Part shown: in pieces, positions 1 through 57,245 of the stretch
How positions within the stretch are numbered: position 1 is the first letter of the stretch
Layout: each line of letters opens with the position of its first letter
NCBI GenBank assembly: GCA_050115495.1
Contig: JASFQK010000014.1
Location: 64,001-128,000 of the forward strand
Direction of reading: 5' to 3'
DNA from: Phycisphaerae bacterium
GTDB taxonomy: Bacteria > Planctomycetota > Phycisphaerae > UBA1845 > Fen-1342
Length of the DNA: 64,000 bases
The notes under the pieces: generated by a model
Told to the model about the DNA's origin: nothing
What the model saw: the letters and a program-made list of their open reading frames with translations, nothing else
Database searches by the model: none
Program-made: the position numbers and the translations under genes

Positions 1-229
1 GCCCATCAGCCGACATGCCCGGAAGCGTTCCTGGCGGCGTAACTCATTGCCGCCGATTGGTTTACAGATTGGCCCCAACGGCCACAGCCAGACTCTCGTC
101 CGCGAAGCGCGGGCCGCGTTGCCATCGACGACGGTGCGTCCCGGGCTTTGCCGATGGTCACCGAGGGCCGTCCGGCGCAGCGGAGCTGCGAGCGAGTGCC
201 CGGGCGGAGAGCGCCAACAGGAGATACCC

Positions 230-3200
230 ATGTGTGATTCGAGCCTCAAGCGTGCGTTTCTGGTGGCGGTCGGGCTGATCGCGGTCACGGCCGCGGCGGT
301 CGCCGACGTCCAACAGGCCGGGGGCTATTACTACACGTACTTCGATGAGCAGATCCCGCTCGGACTGGATCCGGGGCGGGTGGCGGTGTGGATGGACGGT
401 CCGACGACGGACGCCACGCTGGCGGCGTTCGGCCTGGCCGCGGACGATCTGCGCCCGTACACCAACGACGGCTGGCAATTCGCCGAGCTGTCTGAGCCGG
501 TCCGCGACGCCACCCCGGTGCCCGTCCTGGTGCCGGCGCTGGCCAACGCGCAGGCGGCGGACTTCGTATCGCCGGTGCTGCTCGATAAGCGCGGCGACCC
601 AGTGATCATCACGCCGGTGCTGCTGATCGGGTTCGAGCCGGACCTGCCGACGACGCAGGCGGAGACGGTCCTGTCCGGGTACGTGGACGGCGAGGTTCTG
701 GAGCGTGACTGGGCGGACATGGACAACGTGTACCGCGTGCAGTGCCGGAGCCGCGACGGCTTCGAGGTCCTGGCGTTGGCGAACCTGCTGGCCGAACTGC
801 CGGAGGTGCTCTACGCCGAGCCGGACATGATCATGACCGTGCACAAGACGTTGATCCCGAACGACCCGTACTTCTCGTCGCTGTGGGGCATCCGCAACAC
901 GAGCAACGACATGGACATGGACGGTGACGAGGCCTGGGACAAGACGACGGGCTCGTCCTCGATCGTGATCGCCGTACTCGACGACGGTGTCCAGCAGAAT
1001 CACCCGGACATCAACCAGTACTCGGGGGCCGACTTCACCGGCGAGGGTTCGGGTGGCGGACCGGGGAACCAGTGTGATAACCATGGCACGGCCTGTGCCG
1101 GCTGCGTGTCCGCCATCATCAATAACAACACCGGTGTCGTGGGTATCGCGCCCGAGTGCAGGATCCGTTCGGCGAAGTGGAGTGTCTCAAACGTGCCCTG
1201 CGACGGTGCCGGGTACTATTACACGAGCTGGTTGGTAAGCGCGCTGAACTGGGCACAGAACATTGGGGCGCGCGTAACCACAAACAGCAACGGGCTGAAT
1301 CCCGCCAGCTCGGTTACCAACAAGTACAACAGCACGCGCAATGCGGGCCTGGTGCACTTCGCCGCCACCGGCAACGAGGGCAGCAGCTCCATCACGTATC
1401 CGGCCAGCCTCTCCTCGGTGAACGGGATCGGGGCGGTCAACAGCAACGGCAACCGGGCCTCCTTCAGCAACTACGGCACGGGCATCGCCTTCGTGGCTCC
1501 CGGCGTCAACATCCGCACGACCGACCGCACGGGCAGCTCCGGTTACGAATACGGTGACTACGCCTGGGTGGACGGCACGTCTTTCTCGTCGCCGTACGCC
1601 GCCGGCGTGGCTGCGCTGGTGCTCTCGATGGACAACTCGCTGACGCCGGCCCTGGTCGAGCAAGCGCTGTACAACACCTGCATGGACCGTGGGTCCAGCG
1701 GGTACGACACCGTGTACGGCTACGGCATCGTCAACGCCCGGGCGGCGGTCGATTACGTCGACAACACGCAGTACTACACGCTTACGATCAACACGAGCGG
1801 CCAGGGCAGCGTGACGCTGGATCCGTCCGGGGGAATCTACGCCTCCGGCACGAGCGTCCAGCTCACCGCCGAGCCCACGTACGGTTGGGTCTTCGACCAC
1901 TGGGAGGGCTCGCTGAGCGGCTCGTCCAACCCGGCGTCGATCACGATGAACAGCAACAAGACGGTCACGGCGGTCTTCGTGGAAGAGGTGTACACACTGA
2001 CCGCCATGACCCAGGGCAGCGGGACCATCACGCTCGATCCGCCCGGCGGCGCGTATCCCGTGGGCACAGTCGTGCAGTTGATGGCGCGGCAGGATATCGG
2101 CTGGCACTTCGACCACTGGTCGGGCCACCTGGATGGCTCGGGCAACCCCGAGTATCTAACGATGGACGGCGACAAAACGGTTGTTGCCGTCTTCGAGGAA
2201 ACCAGCTACTTCATCTCGATCACGATCGAGGGCCAGGGCAGCGTGACGCTCGATCCGCCGGGCGGCACGTACGCGTTCGGCACCGTCGTGGAACTCACGG
2301 CGGAAGGCGAATCCGGTTGGGTCTTCGATCACTGGGCAGGCGCGCTGAGCGGGGCGGAGAATCCGAAGTCGATCACGGTGAACGGTAACAAGCTGATCAC
2401 CGCGGTCTTCGTCGAGGAGCAGCAGCAGTACACGCTGACGGTCAACGTCACCGGCAATGGCGACGTGACACTCAACCCGCCGGGCGGTACGTACGACTCC
2501 GGCACGACCGTGCAGTTGACCGCGGATGCAGACGCGGATTGGTCGTTCGATCACTGGGAAGGAGCGCTCAGCGGCGCCACGAATCCGACGACGATCTACA
2601 TGGACAGCGACAAGACGGTCACCGCTGTCTTCGAGCCGACGAACGACTGCAACGGCAACGGCGTACCCGACGAGGACGACCTGTCCGCCGGCACGAGCTA
2701 TGACTGCAACGGCAACGGCATTCCGGACGAGTGCGATATCGGCGGCATCAGCCTGGACTGCAACACCAACGGCGTCCCTGATGAGTGCGAACTCGGCAGC
2801 GTCAGCGGCCTGGCGGCGGCGTACTACGACGGCGTGAGCCTCAGCGGGACGGTGCACGGCCGCGTGGATGCCACGGTTGACTTCAACTGGGCCAGTGGTG
2901 AGGCGTGGTCGGGCCTCGGCGTCGACACGTTCAGCGTTCGCTGGACCGGCTGGGTGCATACGCCGGCAGCCGCCGGGACGTACACGTTCTACACCACGAC
3001 CGACGACGGTGTGCGGTTGTGGGTCGGCGGGCAACTGCTGATCGACCAGTGGATCGACCAGTCGGCCACCGAGTGGTCGGGGACGATCAGCCTCGAAGCC
3101 GACGAGGACTACCGGCTGGTGATGGAGTACTACGAGAACGGCGGCAGCGCGGTGGCCGAGCTGCGCTGGGAGCCACCGGGAATGTCGAAGGTGATCATCC

Positions 3201-42336: not shown

Positions 42337-42591
42337 TCCCACCCGCCGGTGCTGAGCGCCTCCGTTCGGCGGTCCGTTTCAGACGGTCGGCGTCCGATTG
42401 CGCCAGGACCCCGGAAAAGCTGTCCTGCCCGCCCGTCACACCTGTTGTTCCAGGATGAAGCCCCCCTGCGCGCAAGACGATAACTACTGCGTGTAGCCGG
42501 CTGCCGCTGCCGCGCAGACCCTGCGCTCGGCGCGGCGGTGCCGGCGAGCCTCGATACAGGAAAACCGCAGCAACGAACGAGAGGTTGCCCC

Positions 42592-44211
42592 ATGTATGCC
42601 ATCCCAGCGCCGCACCGCGGAACGCCCTGGATCGCCCTACTCGTCCTGGCCCTGCTCACCGGACCGGCCTATGCCCAGGACATCGTCTACCAGGCTGTGC
42701 AGCTCGGCACGCTCGGCGGCGGCTCCGGCGACAGCGAAGGCTGGGCCATCAACGACTACGGCCAGATCGTCGGCCGCTCGCACAGCTCCGCCGGCGAGCC
42801 GCACATGTTCCACTGGGAAAACTACGAGATGCTCGATCTGAACATCGAGCTCCAGTGGGATCGGCGGATCCAACAGCTCATCTACGGCGTGGGCTTCGAC
42901 ATCTCGAACACCGACCTGATCGCCGGTGCGACGCAGTGCTCGCCGATGTGCCCGCCCGATGAGCTGGACTCGGACGTCCCCGGTGGCAAGTACGTCCACG
43001 CCTGCCTCTTCCGCCCGGCCGTCATGAGCGATCTGGGCACGCCCTATCCCGGCGACGGACTGACGATTCTCGGCACGCTCGGCAGCGGCCTGTACAGCGC
43101 GGCCACCGGCGTGTCGCCCGGCGGGCTCTACGTCGTCGGTTGGTCCGACACGAACACGTATGGGAGCTTCCACGGCTTCCTGGTCACGCCCGTCAACGGC
43201 GAGTGGAGCGACCGCTGCGTGATCTGCGACGACCCGGCGAACACGCTGCTGAAAGATCTGGGCACGCTGCGCACGCCGGACGAGGTTAGCAGCGCCACCG
43301 CGGTCAACGACGCCGGCCAGGTCGTCGGCTGGTCCTACACCGAGTTCCCCGGCGACACCGCCAAGAGCGGATACTCCGCGTTCCTCATCGAGTTCCCCGG
43401 CGACACGAACGCTGACGGCGTCCTCGACCAGTGGTCGGTCGATGCCAACAGCGACGGGGCCAACGACCTGATGATCGATCTGGGTACGCTCGGCGGGCAC
43501 AATAGCTGGGCCCGCGACATCAACAGCGACGCCATCGTCGTCGGGGAGTCGGACGTCGGTGACTGGATGACGCAGGCGTTCCTCTGGCACCCGGACACGC
43601 GGACGATGCTGCCGCTCGGTACGCTGGGCGGCGAGAACAGCAGCGCCTGCGCCGTCAACAACGTCGGCCAGGTCGTCGGCTGGGCCATGAACGCCGACGA
43701 TGACAAGCGGGCCTTCATCGTCAATCCGCAGGATACCGACGGCAACGGTCTGCCCGACCGTTGGTTCGTCGACGAGGACAACGACGGCGTCAACGATCTC
43801 ATGACCGACCTGAACTCGCTGCTGCCCAGCGGCTTCGGCGTGCGTCTCACCGAGGCACGCGGCATCAACGACAGCGGCCAGATCACCGGCTGGGGCACGA
43901 TCGGCGCCGGCGACAACGTGCAGCGCATGGCCGTCCTGCTCATGCCCGTTCCGGCGAGCGGAGCCGGCGGCGGCGGTGGCAGCACGGGCGTTCGCCAGGA
44001 CGCCGTCCTCGAACCCATCGAAGCCGACGTCAACGGCGGCGGCGACGACGACAACACGGTCGATACCAGCGACGGAACCAGCGCGCCGCTGACGTTCGGA
44101 CCGCTGCACTTCCTGTGCGGCATGGGTCTGAACAGCATGGTGCCGCTGGCGCTCGCCGGCCTGTGCGGCCTGAAGCTCGGCTTCGGCCGGCCGCGTCGCC
44201 GGCTGCGCTGA
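42592..44211 (+). CDS. Secreted HAF-repeat protein with CG-TM-RRR C-terminus
   Basis: Repeated DLGTLGG..S.A..IN..GQVVG.S......AF; tail LCGMG-hydrophobic-RPRRRLR. Confidence 0.85.
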   Translation: MYAIPAPHRGTPWIALLVLALLTGPAYAQDIVYQAVQLGTLGGGSGDSEGWAINDYGQIVGRSHSSAGEPHMFHWENYEMLDLNIELQWDRRIQQLIYGVGFDISNTDLIAGATQCSPMCPPDELDSDVPGGKYVHACLFRPAVMSDLGTPYPGDGLTILGTLGSGLYSAATGVSPGGLYVVGWSDTNTYGSFHGFLVTPVNGEWSDRCVICDDPANTLLKDLGTLRTPDEVSSATAVNDAGQVVGWSYTEFPGDTAKSGYSAFLIEFPGDTNADGVLDQWSVDANSDGANDLMIDLGTLGGHNSWARDINSDAIVVGESDVGDWMTQAFLWHPDTRTMLPLGTLGGENSSACAVNNVGQVVGWAMNADDDKRAFIVNPQDTDGNGLPDRWFVDEDNDGVNDLMTDLNSLLPSGFGVRLTEARGINDSGQITGWGTIGAGDNVQRMAVLLMPVPASGAGGGGGSTGVRQDAVLEPIEADVNGGGDDDNTVDTSDGTSAPLTFGPLHFLCGMGLNSMVPLALAGLCGLKLGFGRPRRRLR

Positions 44212-46830: not shown

Positions 46831-46866
46831 AGAAAAGAGCGGGAGGACGCCGAAGCATCCTCCCGC
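46831..46866 (-). terminator. Intrinsic terminator after the Cys paralog
   Basis: Minus strand GCGGGAGGATGC-TTCG-GCGTCCTCCCGC-TCTTTTCT. Confidence 0.8.
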
Positions 46867-46890
46867 ATCGAGGTCGCGTGTGCGCTGCGA

Positions 46891-48867
46891 CTAGCGTGAG
46901 ATCAACTGCACGAACGGCCCAATGTCGAAGTTGTTGAGCTGGCCGTCCTCGTTGACATCACCGAACATCGGATCGCACTCCGGGTATTGCTCGGCGTAGC
47001 CCTCGGGGTTGGTCAGGGCCAGCACGAACGGGGCGATATCGAAGTTGTCGACGACACCGTCACAGTTCAGGTCGCCGGTGCCGGACAGCGTCGCGATGCA
47101 GCCCCACTGGCTGAGGCTGGTCGTCACCAGGTCAACGTTTCGCGCCATGACGCCGAAGCAGTAGGTTATTTCCGGCTGCAAGCCGTACACGACGAGGTCG
47201 TCCCAGTCGCCCAACTGCTGCCAGACGGCGTCTTCGTCATTCGTACCGGTGGCGTAACCGAGCTCGTCGATCCACTGACCGTCCATCGCCGGGTCGCCGG
47301 TGGTGTAGGCGCACTGGATGGCGAACTCGGTGGTGGCCGGGTTGCTGGCGGGATCGATCGTGACGGCGATCGTCTGGGCGCCGGTGGCGACAAGGGTCGG
47401 GCGGCCGGGGCGCATGGCCAGTGTGTAGGCCGAGGCCGGGTCGCTGTAGCCGGTCTCGTTGCCCGAGCCGTCACGCGCCTTGACCTCGTACGTGTAGGCC
47501 GTGTTGGGCTGGAGACCGGTATTGGCGTAGCCACGCGTGGGCTGCCAGCCGCTGTCGGCGCCGCCCGAGCCGCCGGAGACGAGGTGGAAGTAGTACTCGA
47601 TCGCGGGCGAACCGCTGTCCGAGGCCTCGACCGCACTCATGGTGACCTGCGTGTCGCTGGTCGCGGCCGGAAACAGTTCGAACTCCATCGGATCGGGCGT
47701 GGGCGGCGTCACATCGGCCGGGCCGAGAACGTTGAGGTAGAACTCGCCGGTCGCAGCATCGTTGCCGGCAACGCGGATGTAGTACGTCTCGGCCTCATAC
47801 ACGTCCACGTCCAGGCAGGACTGGAGGGAACCGACGTCGCAGATGTCGCTATCGTCGTTGCAGGCAAGCTGGTTGGCCGCAGTGCCCGGACACCCGGTGT
47901 GCACGGACAGGACGGTGTCCAGAGTTGAGCCGCAGGTGTCGAGGTAGAGCGTGCCGTCGGCCTTGGCGGTGTAAGTGTACCAGACGTCGGGGGAGGAGTT
48001 GGACGAGCCGCAACTGGCGGAGCCGTCATTGGTGGCGTCGCTGGTGTGGCCCTCTTCCGTGCCGTCCTCCACGTCGCGAGCGTCGGAGCAGTCGTCGGCC
48101 GGTCCCGAGGGCGGGAAGGGCCAGAGCATCGTATGCGACTGGAAGACTTCGGCGCGGTTGCTGGGTCCGCCGGTCGATTGGGGCTCCTGGGCCCAGATGA
48201 TGATCTTGATGTTGCTCTGGTGGGACCAGCTATACGAATCGAACGTGAACTGCCGCTCCACGGTCTGGCACTGACCGGGACTGAGGTAGATGTCCTGGGT
48301 GGCAGCGGCCTGCTTGAAGCCGTTGCGGCAATAGCTGGGGCTGGTCGGCCAGTGGTCGAGAACCTGCACCATGTAGATGCGCATGCTCTTGGCCGTGCCA
48401 CCGGCCTCCATGCAGATGGTGGCTTCGACGTTGTAGGTGGTGCCGCTGACGAAATCGCCGGTGGCGGTGATGATCACGTCCGTCGGCAGGACGGCTCGGC
48501 TGTTAAACTCGTTGTAGTAAAGGGCATACGTGTGGCTGCCGCTGTGCTTGACCGTACCGTCGAAGTAGGTCGTCGGATACCCGGTGGCATCCTGGTAGAA
48601 GCTCCAGCGGGCGTTGGCCCAGGAGGTTTCGTAGTCGTCGCCGCGGTGAATCTGGACAAACGAGAACGTGGTCGGGTAGTTCTCCATCAACTGGGCCAGG
48701 ATCGGGCCGGCCTGTGCGCAATAGCTGCACCAGGTCGCGGTGAATTCCTCCCCCAGCACTGTCCGCGTCGCTCCGGAGGCGGTTACGGGCATCGCTGCGA
48801 GAACCACGATCGCCAGGATCCCCCCGAGCCACAAGCTTCTCCGTGTGTAGCTACAACAGCCTTCCAT
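46891..48867 (-). CDS. Secreted thioredoxin-fold (CxxC)/Omp28-like multidomain protein with PPC-like, FN3-like and dockerin-like domains; Cys isoform
   Basis: Signal peptide; EEFTATWCSYC; GYPT cis-Pro-like motif; PDVWY..DTVLSV..CNDD; FN3 Y.Y.VKARD; dockerin; AAGGAG 6 nt before ATG 48867 (alternative 48873). Confidence 0.85.
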   Translation of the reverse strand: MEGCCSYTRRSLWLGGILAIVVLAAMPVTASGATRTVLGEEFTATWCSYCAQAGPILAQLMENYPTTFSFVQIHRGDDYETSWANARWSFYQDATGYPTTYFDGTVKHSGSHTYALYYNEFNSRAVLPTDVIITATGDFVSGTTYNVEATICMEAGGTAKSMRIYMVQVLDHWPTSPSYCRNGFKQAAATQDIYLSPGQCQTVERQFTFDSYSWSHQSNIKIIIWAQEPQSTGGPSNRAEVFQSHTMLWPFPPSGPADDCSDARDVEDGTEEGHTSDATNDGSASCGSSNSSPDVWYTYTAKADGTLYLDTCGSTLDTVLSVHTGCPGTAANQLACNDDSDICDVGSLQSCLDVDVYEAETYYIRVAGNDAATGEFYLNVLGPADVTPPTPDPMEFELFPAATSDTQVTMSAVEASDSGSPAIEYYFHLVSGGSGGADSGWQPTRGYANTGLQPNTAYTYEVKARDGSGNETGYSDPASAYTLAMRPGRPTLVATGAQTIAVTIDPASNPATTEFAIQCAYTTGDPAMDGQWIDELGYATGTNDEDAVWQQLGDWDDLVVYGLQPEITYCFGVMARNVDLVTTSLSQWGCIATLSGTGDLNCDGVVDNFDIAPFVLALTNPEGYAEQYPECDPMFGDVNEDGQLNNFDIGPFVQLISR

Positions 48868-48901
48868 CTCCATCTCCTTGAACGGTGTCCCAAAGCTGCT
48901 T

Positions 48902-48995
48902 CACCGGCATCGATTTGGGGTAGTCCCACCCCAATCGACCGGAACGGTCGCCGGTGCCTCCATGAGACAGCGTACTCAATTGATGGAAGGGTTGC
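48902..48995 (-). promoter_or_regulatory. Conserved promoter-like motif and structured 5' leader, copy 1
   Basis: GCAACC-N9-ATTGAGTACGCTGTCTCA then a three-stem structure (48956-48902), homologous to 51120-51218. Confidence 0.6.
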
Positions 48996-49111
48996 TACCT
49001 TTTTCGGCCCCTTTTGCGCGCACAACATCCCTGTGGACCCTCAGAGGGGCCTGAAGAGGCCCGGGTGGGGGGCGCCGCAGCGTCCCCCACTCAGGGGGCT
49101 TTGCGCTGCGC

Positions 49112-51088
49112 CTAGCGCGAGATCAACTGCACGAACGGCCCAATATCGAAGTTATTGAGTTCACCGTCCTCGTTGATGTCGCCAAACAGGCGGTCGCAGT
49201 CTGGGTACCGCTCGGCGTAGCCCTCCGGGTTGGTCAGGGCCAGCACGAACGGGGCAATATCGAAGTTGTCGACGGTACCGTCGCAGTTCATGTCGCCGAG
49301 GCCGGACAGCGTCGCGGCACAACTCCACTGACTGAGACTGGTCATCACCATATCCACGTTCCGCGCTTTCACGCCGAAGCAGTACGTGATTTCCGGTTGC
49401 AAGCCGCGCACCGTGAGGGTGCCCCACGCATCCAACGACTGCCAGACAGCATCCTCGTCATTGGTCCCGTGGGCGTAGCCGAACTCGTCGATCCACTGGC
49501 CTTCCATCGCCGGGTCGCCGGTGGTGTAGGCGCACTGGATGGCGAACTCGGTGTAGGCCGGGTTGCTGGCCGGATCGATCACGAGGTCCATGTTCCGGCC
49601 GCTCAAGGGGGTGAGCGTCGGGCGACCGGGGCGCATGGCCAGCGTGTTAGCCGAGGCCGGATCGCTGTAGGCCGTCTCGTTGTCCGAGCCGTCGCGCGCC
49701 TTCACCTCGTAGGTGTAGGCCGTGTTGGGCTGGAGACCGGTGTCGATGTAGCCACGGTCGGGCTGCCAGCCGCTGTCGGTGCCACCCGACCCGCCGGAGA
49801 CGACGTGGAAGTAGTACTCGATGGCCGGTGAGCCGTTGTCCGAGGCCTCGACCGCACTCATGGTGATCTGCGATTCGCTGGTCGCGAACGGAAGCAGCTC
49901 GAACTCCATCGGATCGGGCGTGGGCGGCGTCACGTCGGCCGGGCCGAGCACGTTGAGGTAGAACTCGCCCGTCGCGCCGTCGTTGCCGGCGATGCGGATG
50001 TAGTACGTCTCGGCCTCATACACGTCCACCTCCAGGTAGGACTGGAGGGAGCCGGTGCCGCAGACGTCGCTGTCGTCGTTGCAGCCGAGCTCGTTGGCCG
50101 CGGTGCCCGGGCACCCGGTGTGCACGGACAGGACGGTATCCAGCGCCGAGCCGCAAGTGTCGACGATGAGCGTGCCGTCGGCCTTGGCGGTGTAGGCGTA
50201 CCACACGTCCGGGGACGAGTTGGACGAGCCGCAACTGGCCGAGCCGTCATTGGTAGCGTCATTGGTATGACCGTCTTCGGTGCCATCCTCGATATCGCGG
50301 GCGTCACTGCAGTTGTCCGCCGGTCCCGAGGGCGGGAAGGGCCAGAGCATGGTGTGCGACTGGAAGACCTCAGCGCGGTCGCTGGGTCCGCCGGTCGATT
50401 GAGGCTCCTGGGCCCAAATGATAATCTTGATGTTGTTCTGGTTGGCCCAACTGGTGCTGTCGAACGTGAACTGTCGTTCGACGGTCTGGCACTGGCCGGG
50501 GGTGAGGTAGATGTCCTGCGTCGTGGCGCCCTGCTTGAGCCCGTTGCGGTGGTAGTTGGGGCTGCTCGGCCAGTAGTCGAGCACCTGCACCATGTAGATG
50601 CGCATGCTCTTGGCCGTGCCACCGGACTCCATGCAGATGGTCGCCGTGACGTTGTACGTCGTACCGCTGATGTAATCACCGGTCGCCTCGATCAACACGT
50701 CGGTGGGGAGCACTTGGCGGCTGTGAAATTCGTTGTAGTAGAGGCTGTAAACGTGACTGCCGCTGTGCCGCACCGTGGCGTCAAAGAACGTGGTGGGGTA
50801 GCCGGTGAGGTCAACGTAGAAGTTCCACCGGGCATTACCCCAGCTCGTGCCGTAAGAGTCGTTGTAGTGGATTTGAACGAACGAGAAGGTGTTGGGATAG
50901 TTGTTGAGTAGTTGGCTTAAGACGGGACCCGCCTGAGAACAATAGCCTCAGCCGGTGTTGGTGAACTCTTCGCCCAGGACGACACGGGTAGCCCCGGAAG
51001 CCGTCATGGGCGTCGCTGCCACGAGCGCGGCGCCCAGGATCCCCCAGAGCCAGAGGCTTCTCCTTCGGTCGCTGCTACAGCCTTGCAT
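49112..51088 (-). CDS. Predicted selenoprotein: UxxC paralog of the adjacent gene, in-frame TGA at 50950-50948
   Basis: Reading through TGA gives MQGCSSDRRRSLWLWGILGAALVAATPMTASGATRVVLGEEFTNTG-U-GYCSQAGPVL..., collinear with and equal in length to the Cys paralog; SECIS-like hairpin follows. Confidence 0.88.
50914..50947 (-). promoter_or_regulatory. Bacterial SECIS-like stem-loop
   Basis: UGA-GGCUAUUGUUCUC-AGGCGG-GUC-CCGUCU-UAAGCC; G-led loop starts after 19 nt; basal GGCU/AGCC pairing. Confidence 0.75.
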
Positions 51089-51119
51089 CTCCATCTCCTT
51101 AAACAGTGTTTAGATGGCA

Positions 51120-51218
51120 GCGCCGGCGCAACAAGACATGGGGCAGACCGGCCCCACCCTGCCGAAACAGCCACCGGCGCCTTCTTGAGATAGCGTACTC
51201 AATCCATATGGCGGTTGC
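51120..51218 (-). promoter_or_regulatory. Conserved promoter-like motif and structured 5' leader, copy 2
   Basis: GCAACC-N9-ATTGAGTACGCTATCTCA then three stems with compensatory changes relative to copy 1. Confidence 0.6.
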
Positions 51219-51354
51219 CAGACCTTTTCCCCCCCCTTACCATCCGCCCCAAACGGACCTCGCCTGTCGGCGGGGATCGTTGACGTAACATGCTCGACCG
51301 AAACGGTTTACGGCCGTCACGTGCGGACCGCTCTCTTCGCGGGTAAACGCCTGT

Positions 51355-52452
51355 ATGACGCCAGTCGCGACTGCGTCCGACGCCCCCTGCCGGCTCCTGG
51401 TCGTCGTCCCCAACTGGGTCGGTGACGTCGTGCTGGCCTCACCCACACTGGCCGCCCTCCGAGCCGGGATGCCCCGGGCGCGGATCACCTACCTCCTGCG
51501 GCGGTACGTCGGCGAGATCGTCGATGGCTGCGGCTGGCACGACGAGTGCGTCTACTGGTCCCAGCGCGGCGGCAAACGGGAGGGCGGGTTGCTCCGCCTG
51601 GCCGGCCGGCTGCGGGCCGGGCGCTTCGATCTGGCGGTGCTGCTGACGAACTCGTTCCGGTCGGCGTTGACGGTCCGGCTCGCCGGCATCCCCCGTCGAG
51701 TCGGCTACGCCCGGGAACTGCGGGGCTGGCTGCTGACGGACCGGCTCCGTCCGCTACGACGTGACGGCGTGTTCGTGCCGGCCAGCGTGCTCCCCTACTA
51801 CGCGAAGCTGGCCGAGCACGTGCGTTGCCCCGTGACCGATTACGGCCTGCGGCTGGCGGCCAGCCCCGAACAGCAGCGCCAAGGGGCGGCGCTCCTCGCC
51901 CACTACGGCCTGGACGACGGCCGGCCGTACGCCGTCGTTAACCCCGGGGCGAAGTTCGGCGCGGCCAAGTGCTGGCTGCCGGAGCGCTTCGCCGAGCTGT
52001 GCGACCGGCTGCACCGCGAGCACGATCTGCGGCCGGTCCTGGTCGGTAGCCCGGACGAGGCCCCCCTGATGCGGCAGATCGCCGAGGCGACGACCGAGCC
52101 CACCGTCTGCTGTGTTGAGCCGGGAACGACGCTCGGCTCGCTGAAGGTCGTGATCGGCGGGGCGGCCCTGCTCGTCTGCAACGACACCGGCCCGCGGCAT
52201 TACGGGCTGGCTTTCGGCGTGCCGACGGTCACGCTCTTTGGACCGACGCACCAGGAGTGGACAGACACCGGCTCTTCGGCTGAAATCAAGCTTCAGGTGT
52301 CCGTCGACTGCGGCCCGTGCCAGTTGCCCCGCTGCCCGCTCGACCACCGCTGCATGACCCGGCTGACCACCGACATGGTCATGCAGGCCGTGGCGGAGTT
52401 GCTCGGCCGCCGGGCCTCGGTTCCGTCGCCGACGGACGTGACGACGCATTGA
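51355..52452 (+). CDS. waaF: Lipopolysaccharide heptosyltransferase II (GT9)
   Basis: PNWVGDVV, NSFRSA, NPGAKFGAAKCW, NDTGPRH, LFGPT, C.PC..CP..H.CM. Confidence 0.9.
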   Translation: MTPVATASDAPCRLLVVVPNWVGDVVLASPTLAALRAGMPRARITYLLRRYVGEIVDGCGWHDECVYWSQRGGKREGGLLRLAGRLRAGRFDLAVLLTNSFRSALTVRLAGIPRRVGYARELRGWLLTDRLRPLRRDGVFVPASVLPYYAKLAEHVRCPVTDYGLRLAASPEQQRQGAALLAHYGLDDGRPYAVVNPGAKFGAAKCWLPERFAELCDRLHREHDLRPVLVGSPDEAPLMRQIAEATTEPTVCCVEPGTTLGSLKVVIGGAALLVCNDTGPRHYGLAFGVPTVTLFGPTHQEWTDTGSSAEIKLQVSVDCGPCQLPRCPLDHRCMTRLTTDMVMQAVAELLGRRASVPSPTDVTTH

Positions 52453-55772: not shown

Positions 55773-57245
55773 ATGAGCAAGGGACTTGTGTCGATTCGCC
55801 TGCTTCTGGTCGCCGCAATCGCGGTCGGCTTGTTGGGATCACTCTCGACCTACGCTGACGGCGTGTACTTCACCGAGCTCTTCGACGCCGCCGACAACGA
55901 CCTCGACAACCTCAGCATTACCTTCACGCCCAACGGCTCGGGCGATTACTACGGCGGCTGCGTGACGCCGATCACCGCCCTGCCGACGGATCCCGCCGGC
56001 GGGACGCCGATCACGCTCTCCGACAACGGCGCGAAGCGGATTGCGCTGGACTTCAGCCAGGCGGTCGAACTGTACAACCTCGCCTACACCGAGTTCTACG
56101 TCGGCAGCAACGGGTACGTCACGTTCGGCGACGCAGACACCGGGTCGGTCGAGTCGCTGGCCGATCACTTCGACCTGCCGCGCATCTCGGCCCTGTTCGA
56201 CGACCTCGATCCTACTCAGGGCGGCAGCGTGAGCTGGATGCAACTGGGCGATCGCGCCGTGGTCACGTTCCAGAACGTGCCCCAGCATGACGCCGGTGAC
56301 AGCAACACGTTCCAGTACGAGATGTACTACGACGGCCGCATCGTGCTGAGCTACCTGGGTGTCGATGCCGATGACGGGCTCGCCGGCCTCTCGCAGGGCT
56401 TCGGTACCCCGGGCGACTACAGCGAGACCAATCTGTCCGGCCTGGACCCCTGCCCGGACTACTTCACCGAGTGGTTCGACGCGGCGGACAACGATCTCGA
56501 CAACCTCATGGTCATCTTCACGCCGGACGGTTCGTCCAACTACTACGCCGGCTGCGTAACGCCGATCCTGGCCCTGCCGACGGATCCCGTTGGCGGGACG
56601 CCGATCACGCTTTCGGACAATGGTTCGAAGCGGATCACGCTGGACTTCAGCCAGACGGTCGAGCTGTACAACCTCGGCTACACCGAGTTCTACGTCGGCA
56701 GCAACGGGTACATCACGTTCTCCGCCGGCGACAGTGAGTCGGCCGAGTCGCTGGTCAACCACTTCGATCTGCCGCGTATCTCGGCCCTCTTCGATGATCT
56801 CGATCCGGGCCAGGGCGGCAGCGTGAGCTGGATGCAACTGGCCGACCGCGCCGTGGTCACGTTCCAGAACGTGCCCCAGCACGACATGGGTGACGCGAAC
56901 ACGTTCCAGTACGAGATGTACTACGACGGCCGCATTGCGCTGGCTTACCTGGGCATCGATGCTGACGACGGGCTCGCCGGCCTCTCGCAGGGCTTCGGTA
57001 CGCCGGGCGACTTCGAGGAGAGCAACCTGTCTGAGATGCCAGCCTGCTACGCCATCGGCGACATGAACTGCGACGGCACGGTCAACAACTTCGACATCGC
57101 CCCGTTCGTGATGGCGCTCAGCAACCCGACCAACTACGAAACGCAGTACCCGACGTGCGACCGCTACCTGGCGGACGTCGATGGTGACGGGTCGGTCAAC
57201 AACTTCGACATCAGCCCGTTCATCGCCCTGCTGCTCGGCAAGTAA
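55773..57245 (+). CDS. Secreted protein with two 198-aa nidogen(NIDO)-like repeats and dockerin-like C-terminus
   Basis: Signal peptide; repeats begin at 55866 and 56460 (YVGSNGY.TF, ISALFDDLDP, NTFQ..MYYDGRI); dockerin. Confidence 0.85.
   Translation: MSKGLVSIRLLLVAAIAVGLLGSLSTYADGVYFTELFDAADNDLDNLSITFTPNGSGDYYGGCVTPITALPTDPAGGTPITLSDNGAKRIALDFSQAVELYNLAYTEFYVGSNGYVTFGDADTGSVESLADHFDLPRISALFDDLDPTQGGSVSWMQLGDRAVVTFQNVPQHDAGDSNTFQYEMYYDGRIVLSYLGVDADDGLAGLSQGFGTPGDYSETNLSGLDPCPDYFTEWFDAADNDLDNLMVIFTPDGSSNYYAGCVTPILALPTDPVGGTPITLSDNGSKRITLDFSQTVELYNLGYTEFYVGSNGYITFSAGDSESAESLVNHFDLPRISALFDDLDPGQGGSVSWMQLADRAVVTFQNVPQHDMGDANTFQYEMYYDGRIALAYLGIDADDGLAGLSQGFGTPGDFEESNLSEMPACYAIGDMNCDGTVNNFDIAPFVMALSNPTNYETQYPTCDRYLADVDGDGSVNNFDISPFIALLLGK

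Follow-up and report, generated by a model that had tools for sequence, protein, structure and literature searches.

Within a 64,000-nucleotide (nt) stretch of the genome of a Phycisphaerae bacterium (contig JASFQK010000014.1, positions 64,001 to 128,000; hereafter 'the window', the whole stretch analysed, with positions counted from its first letter), two adjacent genes on the reverse strand encode closely similar proteins that differ in the first residue of a redox motif, which is encoded by UGA in the upstream copy and by a cysteine (Cys) codon in the downstream copy. The two genes constitute a real tandem selenocysteine (Sec)/Cys pair, and their branch, though divergent, is related to an already known selenoprotein family. 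We suggest viewing them as co-expressed paralogues which arose from an old tandem duplication, with the Cys copy acting as a passive selenium hedge, a reading to which we would give about an even chance.

The earlier note on this DNA had described a unit of about 2.2 kb, comprising upstream motif, leader, coding sequence (CDS) and 3' hairpin, as duplicated, and the coordinates (Table 1) bear this out: the offset is 2,221 bp from CDS to CDS and 2,223 bp from leader to leader, and the core of the upstream motif, GCAACC-N15-TACGCT, is common to both copies, with diverged flanks. The proteins are, as had likewise been stated, collinear and highly similar, sharing 81% amino-acid identity without gaps (82% at the nucleotide level). 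The further statement that they differ most visibly around the redox motif holds only in part: the motif does differ (U49-G-Y-C52 in the Sec copy, C49-S-Y-C52 in the Cys copy), but the 124 residue differences run along the whole protein, with 12 in residues 1-34, 30 in 35-147, 15 in 148-255 and 67 in 256-660. Contigs from one DNA sequencing run, which is possibly the source sample, span the intergenic region (48375-49250) and the UGA (50596-51800) with zero other letters.

It is very likely that codon 49 of the Sec copy is read as selenocysteine, because the genome (G000; 5.97 Mb, 92% complete, with the window on contig C14) carries selA, selB and selD, the latter itself with a UGA, as well as a tRNA-Sec gene, and because a hairpin of the selenocysteine insertion sequence (SECIS) type tracks the UGA genes of the family and, in the window, the UGA copy. 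Searches with the N-terminal domain, which is present in 27 of 61 relatives and 44 of 72 family genomes, yielded 124 genes from 46 genomes once a weak match in G011 had been dropped: 69 have UGA at the equivalent residue, 52 have Cys and 3 are other or cut. When a hairpin with 4 bp or more enclosing a GU-containing loop was required 18-27 nt downstream of the codon, 66 of the 69 UGA genes passed versus 7 of 51 Cys genes, with the Sec copy of the window passing and its Cys copy failing; among genes fetched after the test had been designed on the first 70, 28 of 31 Sec genes and 2 of 19 Cys genes passed. Synonymous resampling gives mean passes of just 1.9 for the Sec genes and 1.0 for the Cys genes. 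Furthermore, (i) the Gly codon of the loop is GGT in 60 of 67 Sec genes versus 127 of 866 other Gly codons, and (ii) the closing wobble pair covaries among the Sec genes (CG 48, GC 17, TA 2). The thermodynamic fold of the 55 nt after the UGA (z -0.5) is uninformative for SECIS alone, and in a genome-wide scan for UGA plus hairpin chance matches dominate. A second tRNA-Sec call by ARAGORN, on contig C3, is poorly paired and missing among the listed Rfam matches, so that only the call on C24 was counted. A third paralogue in the same genome (C3, about 61923; L200) has UGA at the equivalent site and a strong SECIS (-25 kcal/mol), with no resolving Cys at +3; Cys is absent at both +3 and +4 in 6 of the 69 Sec genes.

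That the UGA might instead be a nonsense mutation or an assembly error, rendering the upstream copy a pseudogene, can be considered effectively refuted. The codon itself and the modest fold score of the nucleotides following it are all that speak for this explanation, and against it stand the recurrence of UGA at the equivalent residue in more than half of the family genes, a family SECIS with compensatory wobble pairs, and the agreement of DNA and RNA contigs at the codon. Moreover, the ratio of non-synonymous to synonymous divergence (dN/dS), proposed in the earlier note as a check on decay, is 0.22 for the pair at a synonymous divergence (dS) of 0.56, and ranges from 0.14 to 0.35 in the individual domains following the signal peptide. 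Both open reading frames are intact, neither copy is decaying, and the sequences indicate that both are under purifying selection and maintained.

A survey of the family shows up to 6 copies per genome: among the 46 genomes, many of them incomplete, 20 carry both forms, 13 only Sec and 13 no Sec form. The earlier note had called for a search for adjacent Sec/Cys genes in related genomes, and this type of pair does recur, with 6 mixed, 6 Sec-only and 2 Cys-only arrays among 14 tandem arrays (G094 and G095 representing one lineage). Hence the outcome that would have spoken against its proposal, a pair unique to this genome with one copy decaying, is not what we observe. The seven mixed adjacent pairs are ordered Cys-then-Sec in 5 cases and Sec-then-Cys in 2. 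Sister pairs of Sec and Cys genes are found in other lineages (G005, G090, G094/G095, G002/G003 and G026), and two of these persist over species pairs; in G005, the tRNA-Sec gene shares contig C77 with a Sec-Cys-Sec array (L062) at a distance of about 8 kb. The note's expectation that the Sec copy would be lost where sel genes are absent was not borne out: selA or selB is present in each of the 13 genomes that lack a Sec form, and loss of the Sec form therefore does not track loss of sel genes.

In a tree of 119 rows (obtained, like all our trees, by quick searches, with 5 short or unclassified rows left out), the window copies are sisters with a support of 100, and 27 changes between Sec and Cys are required, 15 of which are forced by starred branches. 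Nearest to the window pair stand one Sec gene (G070) and one solitary Cys gene (G091, the closest relative of the same architecture found), so that the pair may have changed in either direction. For the family, Sec-to-Cys changes are suggested because 7 of 51 Cys genes retain a SECIS-type hairpin, a number reached in none of 2,000 resamplings (null mean 1.0, maximum 6). These relic hairpins suggest that Sec was repeatedly replaced by Cys in organisms which still make Sec. The Cys genes concerned are found in L062, L012, L037, L075, L008 and L157, and two of them use TGT, one step from TGA.

As to expression, the earlier note had assigned a promoter and a leader to each copy. A conserved motif and a leader are indeed located at each, but a sigma-70 scan found no minus-strand site, and the promoters are proposed from the conserved motif. 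Within the genome, the combination of leader and promoter core has no match beyond these two genes; when the leader was considered as a conserved RNA family, 71 other family genomes gave only two weak short matches (E 0.004-0.008), and Rfam and ARAGORN scans of the window returned no match. The UUCG terminator with a U-rich tract that the note saw after the Cys copy is present as a strong terminator-like site (fold z -3.8), as is the equivalent hairpin devoid of a U-tract behind the Sec copy. The Sec leader hairpin (window 51157-51128) has a GGUC-containing loop and a weakly U-rich tail, and the Cys leader hairpin has neither; a terminator-like match in the Sec leader was set aside as being at chance level (3 sites versus 2.8 expected in the scan). 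One RNA run supplied contigs for both genes, covering the UGA, the Cys leader and the 3' hairpin of the Sec copy (spanned by 49031-49255), all in alignments of at least 97% identity and, for those listed, with zero other letters, UGA included; they come from one unstranded study, could include DNA, and give no starts, strand or levels. A contig end at 48954, close to the inferred start, and the gap 48954-49031 were given no weight. Other genes of the window are likewise covered by contigs of this run, and levels cannot be ranked.

Under the passive-hedge reading, both copies would probably be transcribed together from matching promoters. With selenium present, SelB would read the hairpin and both proteins would be made, of which the Sec form is presumably the faster catalyst. 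With selenium absent, translation of the upstream copy would halt at codon 49, and polarity may follow, as it does in fdhFSec of Treponema primitia; the Cys copy would still be produced from its own promoter. The ratio of Sec to Cys protein would then be set by selenium via UGA decoding alone, with no sensor inducing the Cys gene.

The earlier note had gone further and proposed that the two copies are reciprocally expressed according to selenium supply, for which we find no support. Such an active switch, in which selenium would lead to repression of the Cys copy either by a regulator or by read-through from the fully translated Sec gene, which would run past the terminator-less hairpin, occlude the Cys promoter and fold over the Cys ribosome site, appears unlikely to us. 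Consistent with it are (i) the missing U-tract behind the Sec copy, (ii) the RNA-run contig across the Sec 3' hairpin, (iii) the energy predicted to be needed to open the Cys ribosome site, which rises from 10.7 kcal/mol, when calculated from the gene's own inferred start, to 13-16 kcal/mol with 60-250 nt of upstream sequence, and (iv) precedents that the available portions of two reports describe for Methanococcus (PMC11097638) and T. primitia (PMC3892789). The folding effect is, however, unstable, with the opening energy falling to 8.4 kcal/mol when 20 nt are added upstream. Likewise, the promoter core is the same in both copies, the gene order is reversed in 5 of 7 mixed adjacent pairs, a U-tract terminator separates the copies of the other Sec-then-Cys pair (G005; sequence read by eye), the leader was not found in the other family genomes, and no HrsM-like LysR gene was detected (no match to NF040786 at E 0.001 in this 92%-complete genome). 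Control of the type known for selAB of Escherichia coli employs a SECIS in the leader. Control of the Cys genes by such an element found no support: neither window leader has a SECIS-like hairpin, and upstream hairpins of this type are no commoner before Cys genes (5 of 52) than before Sec genes (6 of 67). Finally, read-through cannot supply the backup, because UGA polarity would cut read-through into the Cys gene at low selenium; it could possibly only silence the Cys promoter at high selenium.

Along the window pair, silent sites have diverged more in codons about 31-147 than further on, with a break near codon 147 (0 of 5,000 permutations); outside the SECIS, synonymous changes amount to 31 of 57 around the active site versus 94 of 416 elsewhere. 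The 14 codons preceding the site hold 36 changes versus 19.4 expected in six further Sec/Cys pairs, and 22 versus 22.7 expected in seven Sec/Sec pairs. Excess divergence near the site in mixed pairs only is as expected if homogenisation spares the Sec/Cys site; in the window pair, the pattern suggests that later homogenisation spared the active-site region. Import of an active-site patch from a distant paralogue was rejected as a source, the copies being mutually nearest in four of five segments (the exception is a segment where residues 155-205 of the Cys copy are 84% like a G020 gene versus 82% like the Sec copy), and low GC content at third codon positions was not sufficient as a cause of the N-terminal divergence.

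These observations also bear on a more ordinary explanation, namely paralogue expansion with tuning, in which the copies were kept for dosage or because their substrates or redox potentials differ, with selenium supply playing an incidental part; we consider this possible though not probable. It can draw on the high copy numbers per genome, on the eight unmixed arrays, on mixing of Sec and Cys at chance level, on the many Sec/Cys changes in the tree, on the spread of differences along the whole protein, including UGYC versus CSYC and the residues preceding them, and on the fact that G091 holds a single Cys gene. The excess synonymous divergence in mixed but not Sec/Sec pairs, the promoter core conserved between the copies, and a trend to discordance after duplication argue against it. 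Several points nevertheless weigh against a selenium hedge. The peak in divergence emerged post hoc from a small number of non-independent pairs, and at some upstream positions Sec and Cys genes show a mild difference in codon preference (p 0.02-0.04). Besides the Sec/Cys exchange there are 123 residue differences between the copies, including 67 in the passenger domains, and the two may not be interchangeable. The 13 Sec-only genomes show that a Cys backup is not obligatory; a Cys paralogue of at least 60% identity accompanies just 7 of 68 Sec genes within the genome, and mixed adjacent pairs (7 of 18) are not above the chance expectation of 43-49%. The trend to discordance, that is, Sec/Cys mismatch at 6 of 15 duplication nodes (as read from the tree) versus 2 of 19 comparable between-genome sister pairs (p 0.10; 5 of 14 nodes and p 0.11 without the window pair; 3 of 31 for all between-genome sister pairs), is not significant. 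In addition, the RNA contigs belong to a single unstranded study and could stem from DNA, and the promoters are inferred.

It is tempting to speculate on a more far-reaching scenario, which we nonetheless regard as improbable: that this Phycisphaerae family of secreted thioredoxin-fold proteins has flipped between Sec and Cys dozens of times, that its tandem twins are held by selection, that everything outside the active-site patch is kept homogeneous by gene conversion, and that in the window pair UGA decoding of the upstream copy would serve as the selenium sensor, with read-through silencing the downstream Cys copy without a regulator protein.

Both proteins are likely secreted, judging from their N-termini, and a role in extracellular thiol-disulfide exchange is likely. 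In the predicted fold, residues 35-255 form a thioredoxin plus an immunoglobulin (Ig)-like domain (predicted local distance difference test, pLDDT, 96). The closest structure is that of HBP35 (PDB 5Y1A; Z 23.1, root-mean-square deviation 2.9 over 218 residues; Foldseek TM 0.76; 13% identity), a surface protein of Porphyromonas gingivalis described as having CxxC-dependent thioredoxin activity (PMC2907840, available portion). HBP35 shares the predicted two-domain fold, but has Cys only and a Bacteroidetes C-terminal sorting domain. The best NCBIfam match is NF045500, 'Omp28-related selenoprotein' (39.3 and 36.7 bits, E 5e-10 and 3e-9; cut-off 200; two relatives score 113 and 50 bits), which a 2026 review lists as GOS_C (PMC13188914), a family first predicted from ocean metagenomes (PMC2398784). 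Like GOS_C in the available portions of these two accounts, the window pair has UxxC in a thioredoxin-like fold and both Sec and Cys forms; it differs in falling far below the cut-off and in adding galactose-binding-like, FN3-like and dockerin-like domains, the last with well over a hundred occurrences in the genome. On sequence grounds, the pair thus represents a divergent Phycisphaerae branch related to the GOS_C/Omp28-related selenoproteins, not filed as a member. The family is also multi-copy with tandem Sec/Cys arrays, which those portions of the GOS_C accounts do not mention.

Two known systems offer a comparison. In T. primitia, as far as the available text goes, low selenium truncates fdhFSec transcripts near the SECIS and raises the fdhFCys transcript (PMC3892789); this too is a bacterial Sec/Cys paralogue pair whose Sec copy depends on UGA decoding, but it concerns an enzyme of central metabolism with a measured rise of the Cys transcript, whereas the window pair is known from sequence and contigs. 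In Methanococcus maripaludis, which likewise has Sec and Cys isoforms within one genome, the LysR protein HrsM is reported to repress the Cys isoenzyme genes, with changes of 4-11 log2 (PMC11097638, in part); there, the genes are archaeal and lie in separate operons under LysR control, whereas the window pair shares one promoter motif. Sec/Cys isoform pairs are known for a few core metabolic enzymes, and the present one is tandem and encodes a likely secreted redox protein, providing a near-isogenic natural comparison of Sec and Cys. According to the accessible parts of existing surveys, Sec-to-Cys changes are rare and occur mostly in FdhA and SelD, with remnant SECIS there (PMC1794560, PMC13188914); in contrast, this Phycisphaerae family alone needs at least 15 Sec/Cys changes, and bears on how Sec is gained and lost. 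Our search of the accessible literature found no description of this pair or branch.

Table 1. Features of the tandem pair (positions in the window; residues where indicated)
Feature	Position	Strand	Remarks
Promoter-like motif, Sec copy	51218-51192	-	GCAACC-N15-TACGCT; function inferred
5' leader, Sec copy (inferred)	51095-51185	-	GC-rich hairpin 51157-51138; ribosome site AAGGAG 51100-51095
CDS, Sec copy (UGA)	49112-51094	-	660 codons
In-frame UGA, codon 49	50950-50948	-	aligned with TGC in Cys copy; first Cys of CxxC in Cys copy and relatives
SECIS apical stem-loop, Sec copy	50934-50920	-	5 bp, GGU-containing loop; loop G 21 nt from first UGA base
3' hairpin after Sec copy	49090-49065	-	-25 kcal/mol; homologous to Cys-copy terminator stem, no U-tract
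Promoter-like motif, Cys copy	48995-48969	-	core same as in Sec copy; function inferred
5' leader, Cys copy (inferred)	48874-48963	-	hairpin with compensatory changes versus Sec leader; AAGGAG 48879-48874
CDS, Cys copy	46891-48873	-	660 codons; same domain architecture as Sec copy; C49-S-Y-C52; no SECIS
Terminator-like site after Cys copy	46866-46829	-	12-bp stem, UUCG loop, U-rich tail UCUUUUCUGC; faces convergent DinG-like helicase gene
Likely signal peptide	residues about 1-34		hydrophobic N-terminal segment, read by eye
Thioredoxin+Ig (Omp28/HBP35-like) domain	residues 35-255		holds U49-G-Y-C52
Galactose-binding-like domain	residues about 260-385		weak profile matches
FN3-like region	between galactose-binding-like and dockerin-like domains		weak profile matches
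Dockerin-like domain, C-terminal	residues 600-660		weak profile matches

The pair is flanked by the DinG-like helicase gene and a heptosyltransferase gene. Elsewhere in the window, positions 55773-57245 encode a likely secreted protein of 490 residues with an internal duplicated domain and a dockerin-like C-terminus as in the pair, and positions 42538-44211 a protein of 557 residues that carries HAF-like repeats (DUF3466) and may end in a sorting tail. Within the wider family, Ser or Gly replaces the first Cys/Sec in L064 (G003 C108) and L191 (G079 C477). A subfamily of about 785 residues (22 of the 124 genes, 8 with UGA) has the (U/C)xxC domain fused to nine CxxCH heme motifs; in six genomes a further family gene lies about 6.3 kb downstream of the fusion, and in both loci that were read (L199:1904-6944 in G000 C4; L157:644-5504 in G090 C8) the fusion gene directly precedes genes for the small and large subunits of a [NiFe]/NiFeSe-like hydrogenase, an arrangement that suggests a relay from H2 via the heme chain to the thiol or selenol.

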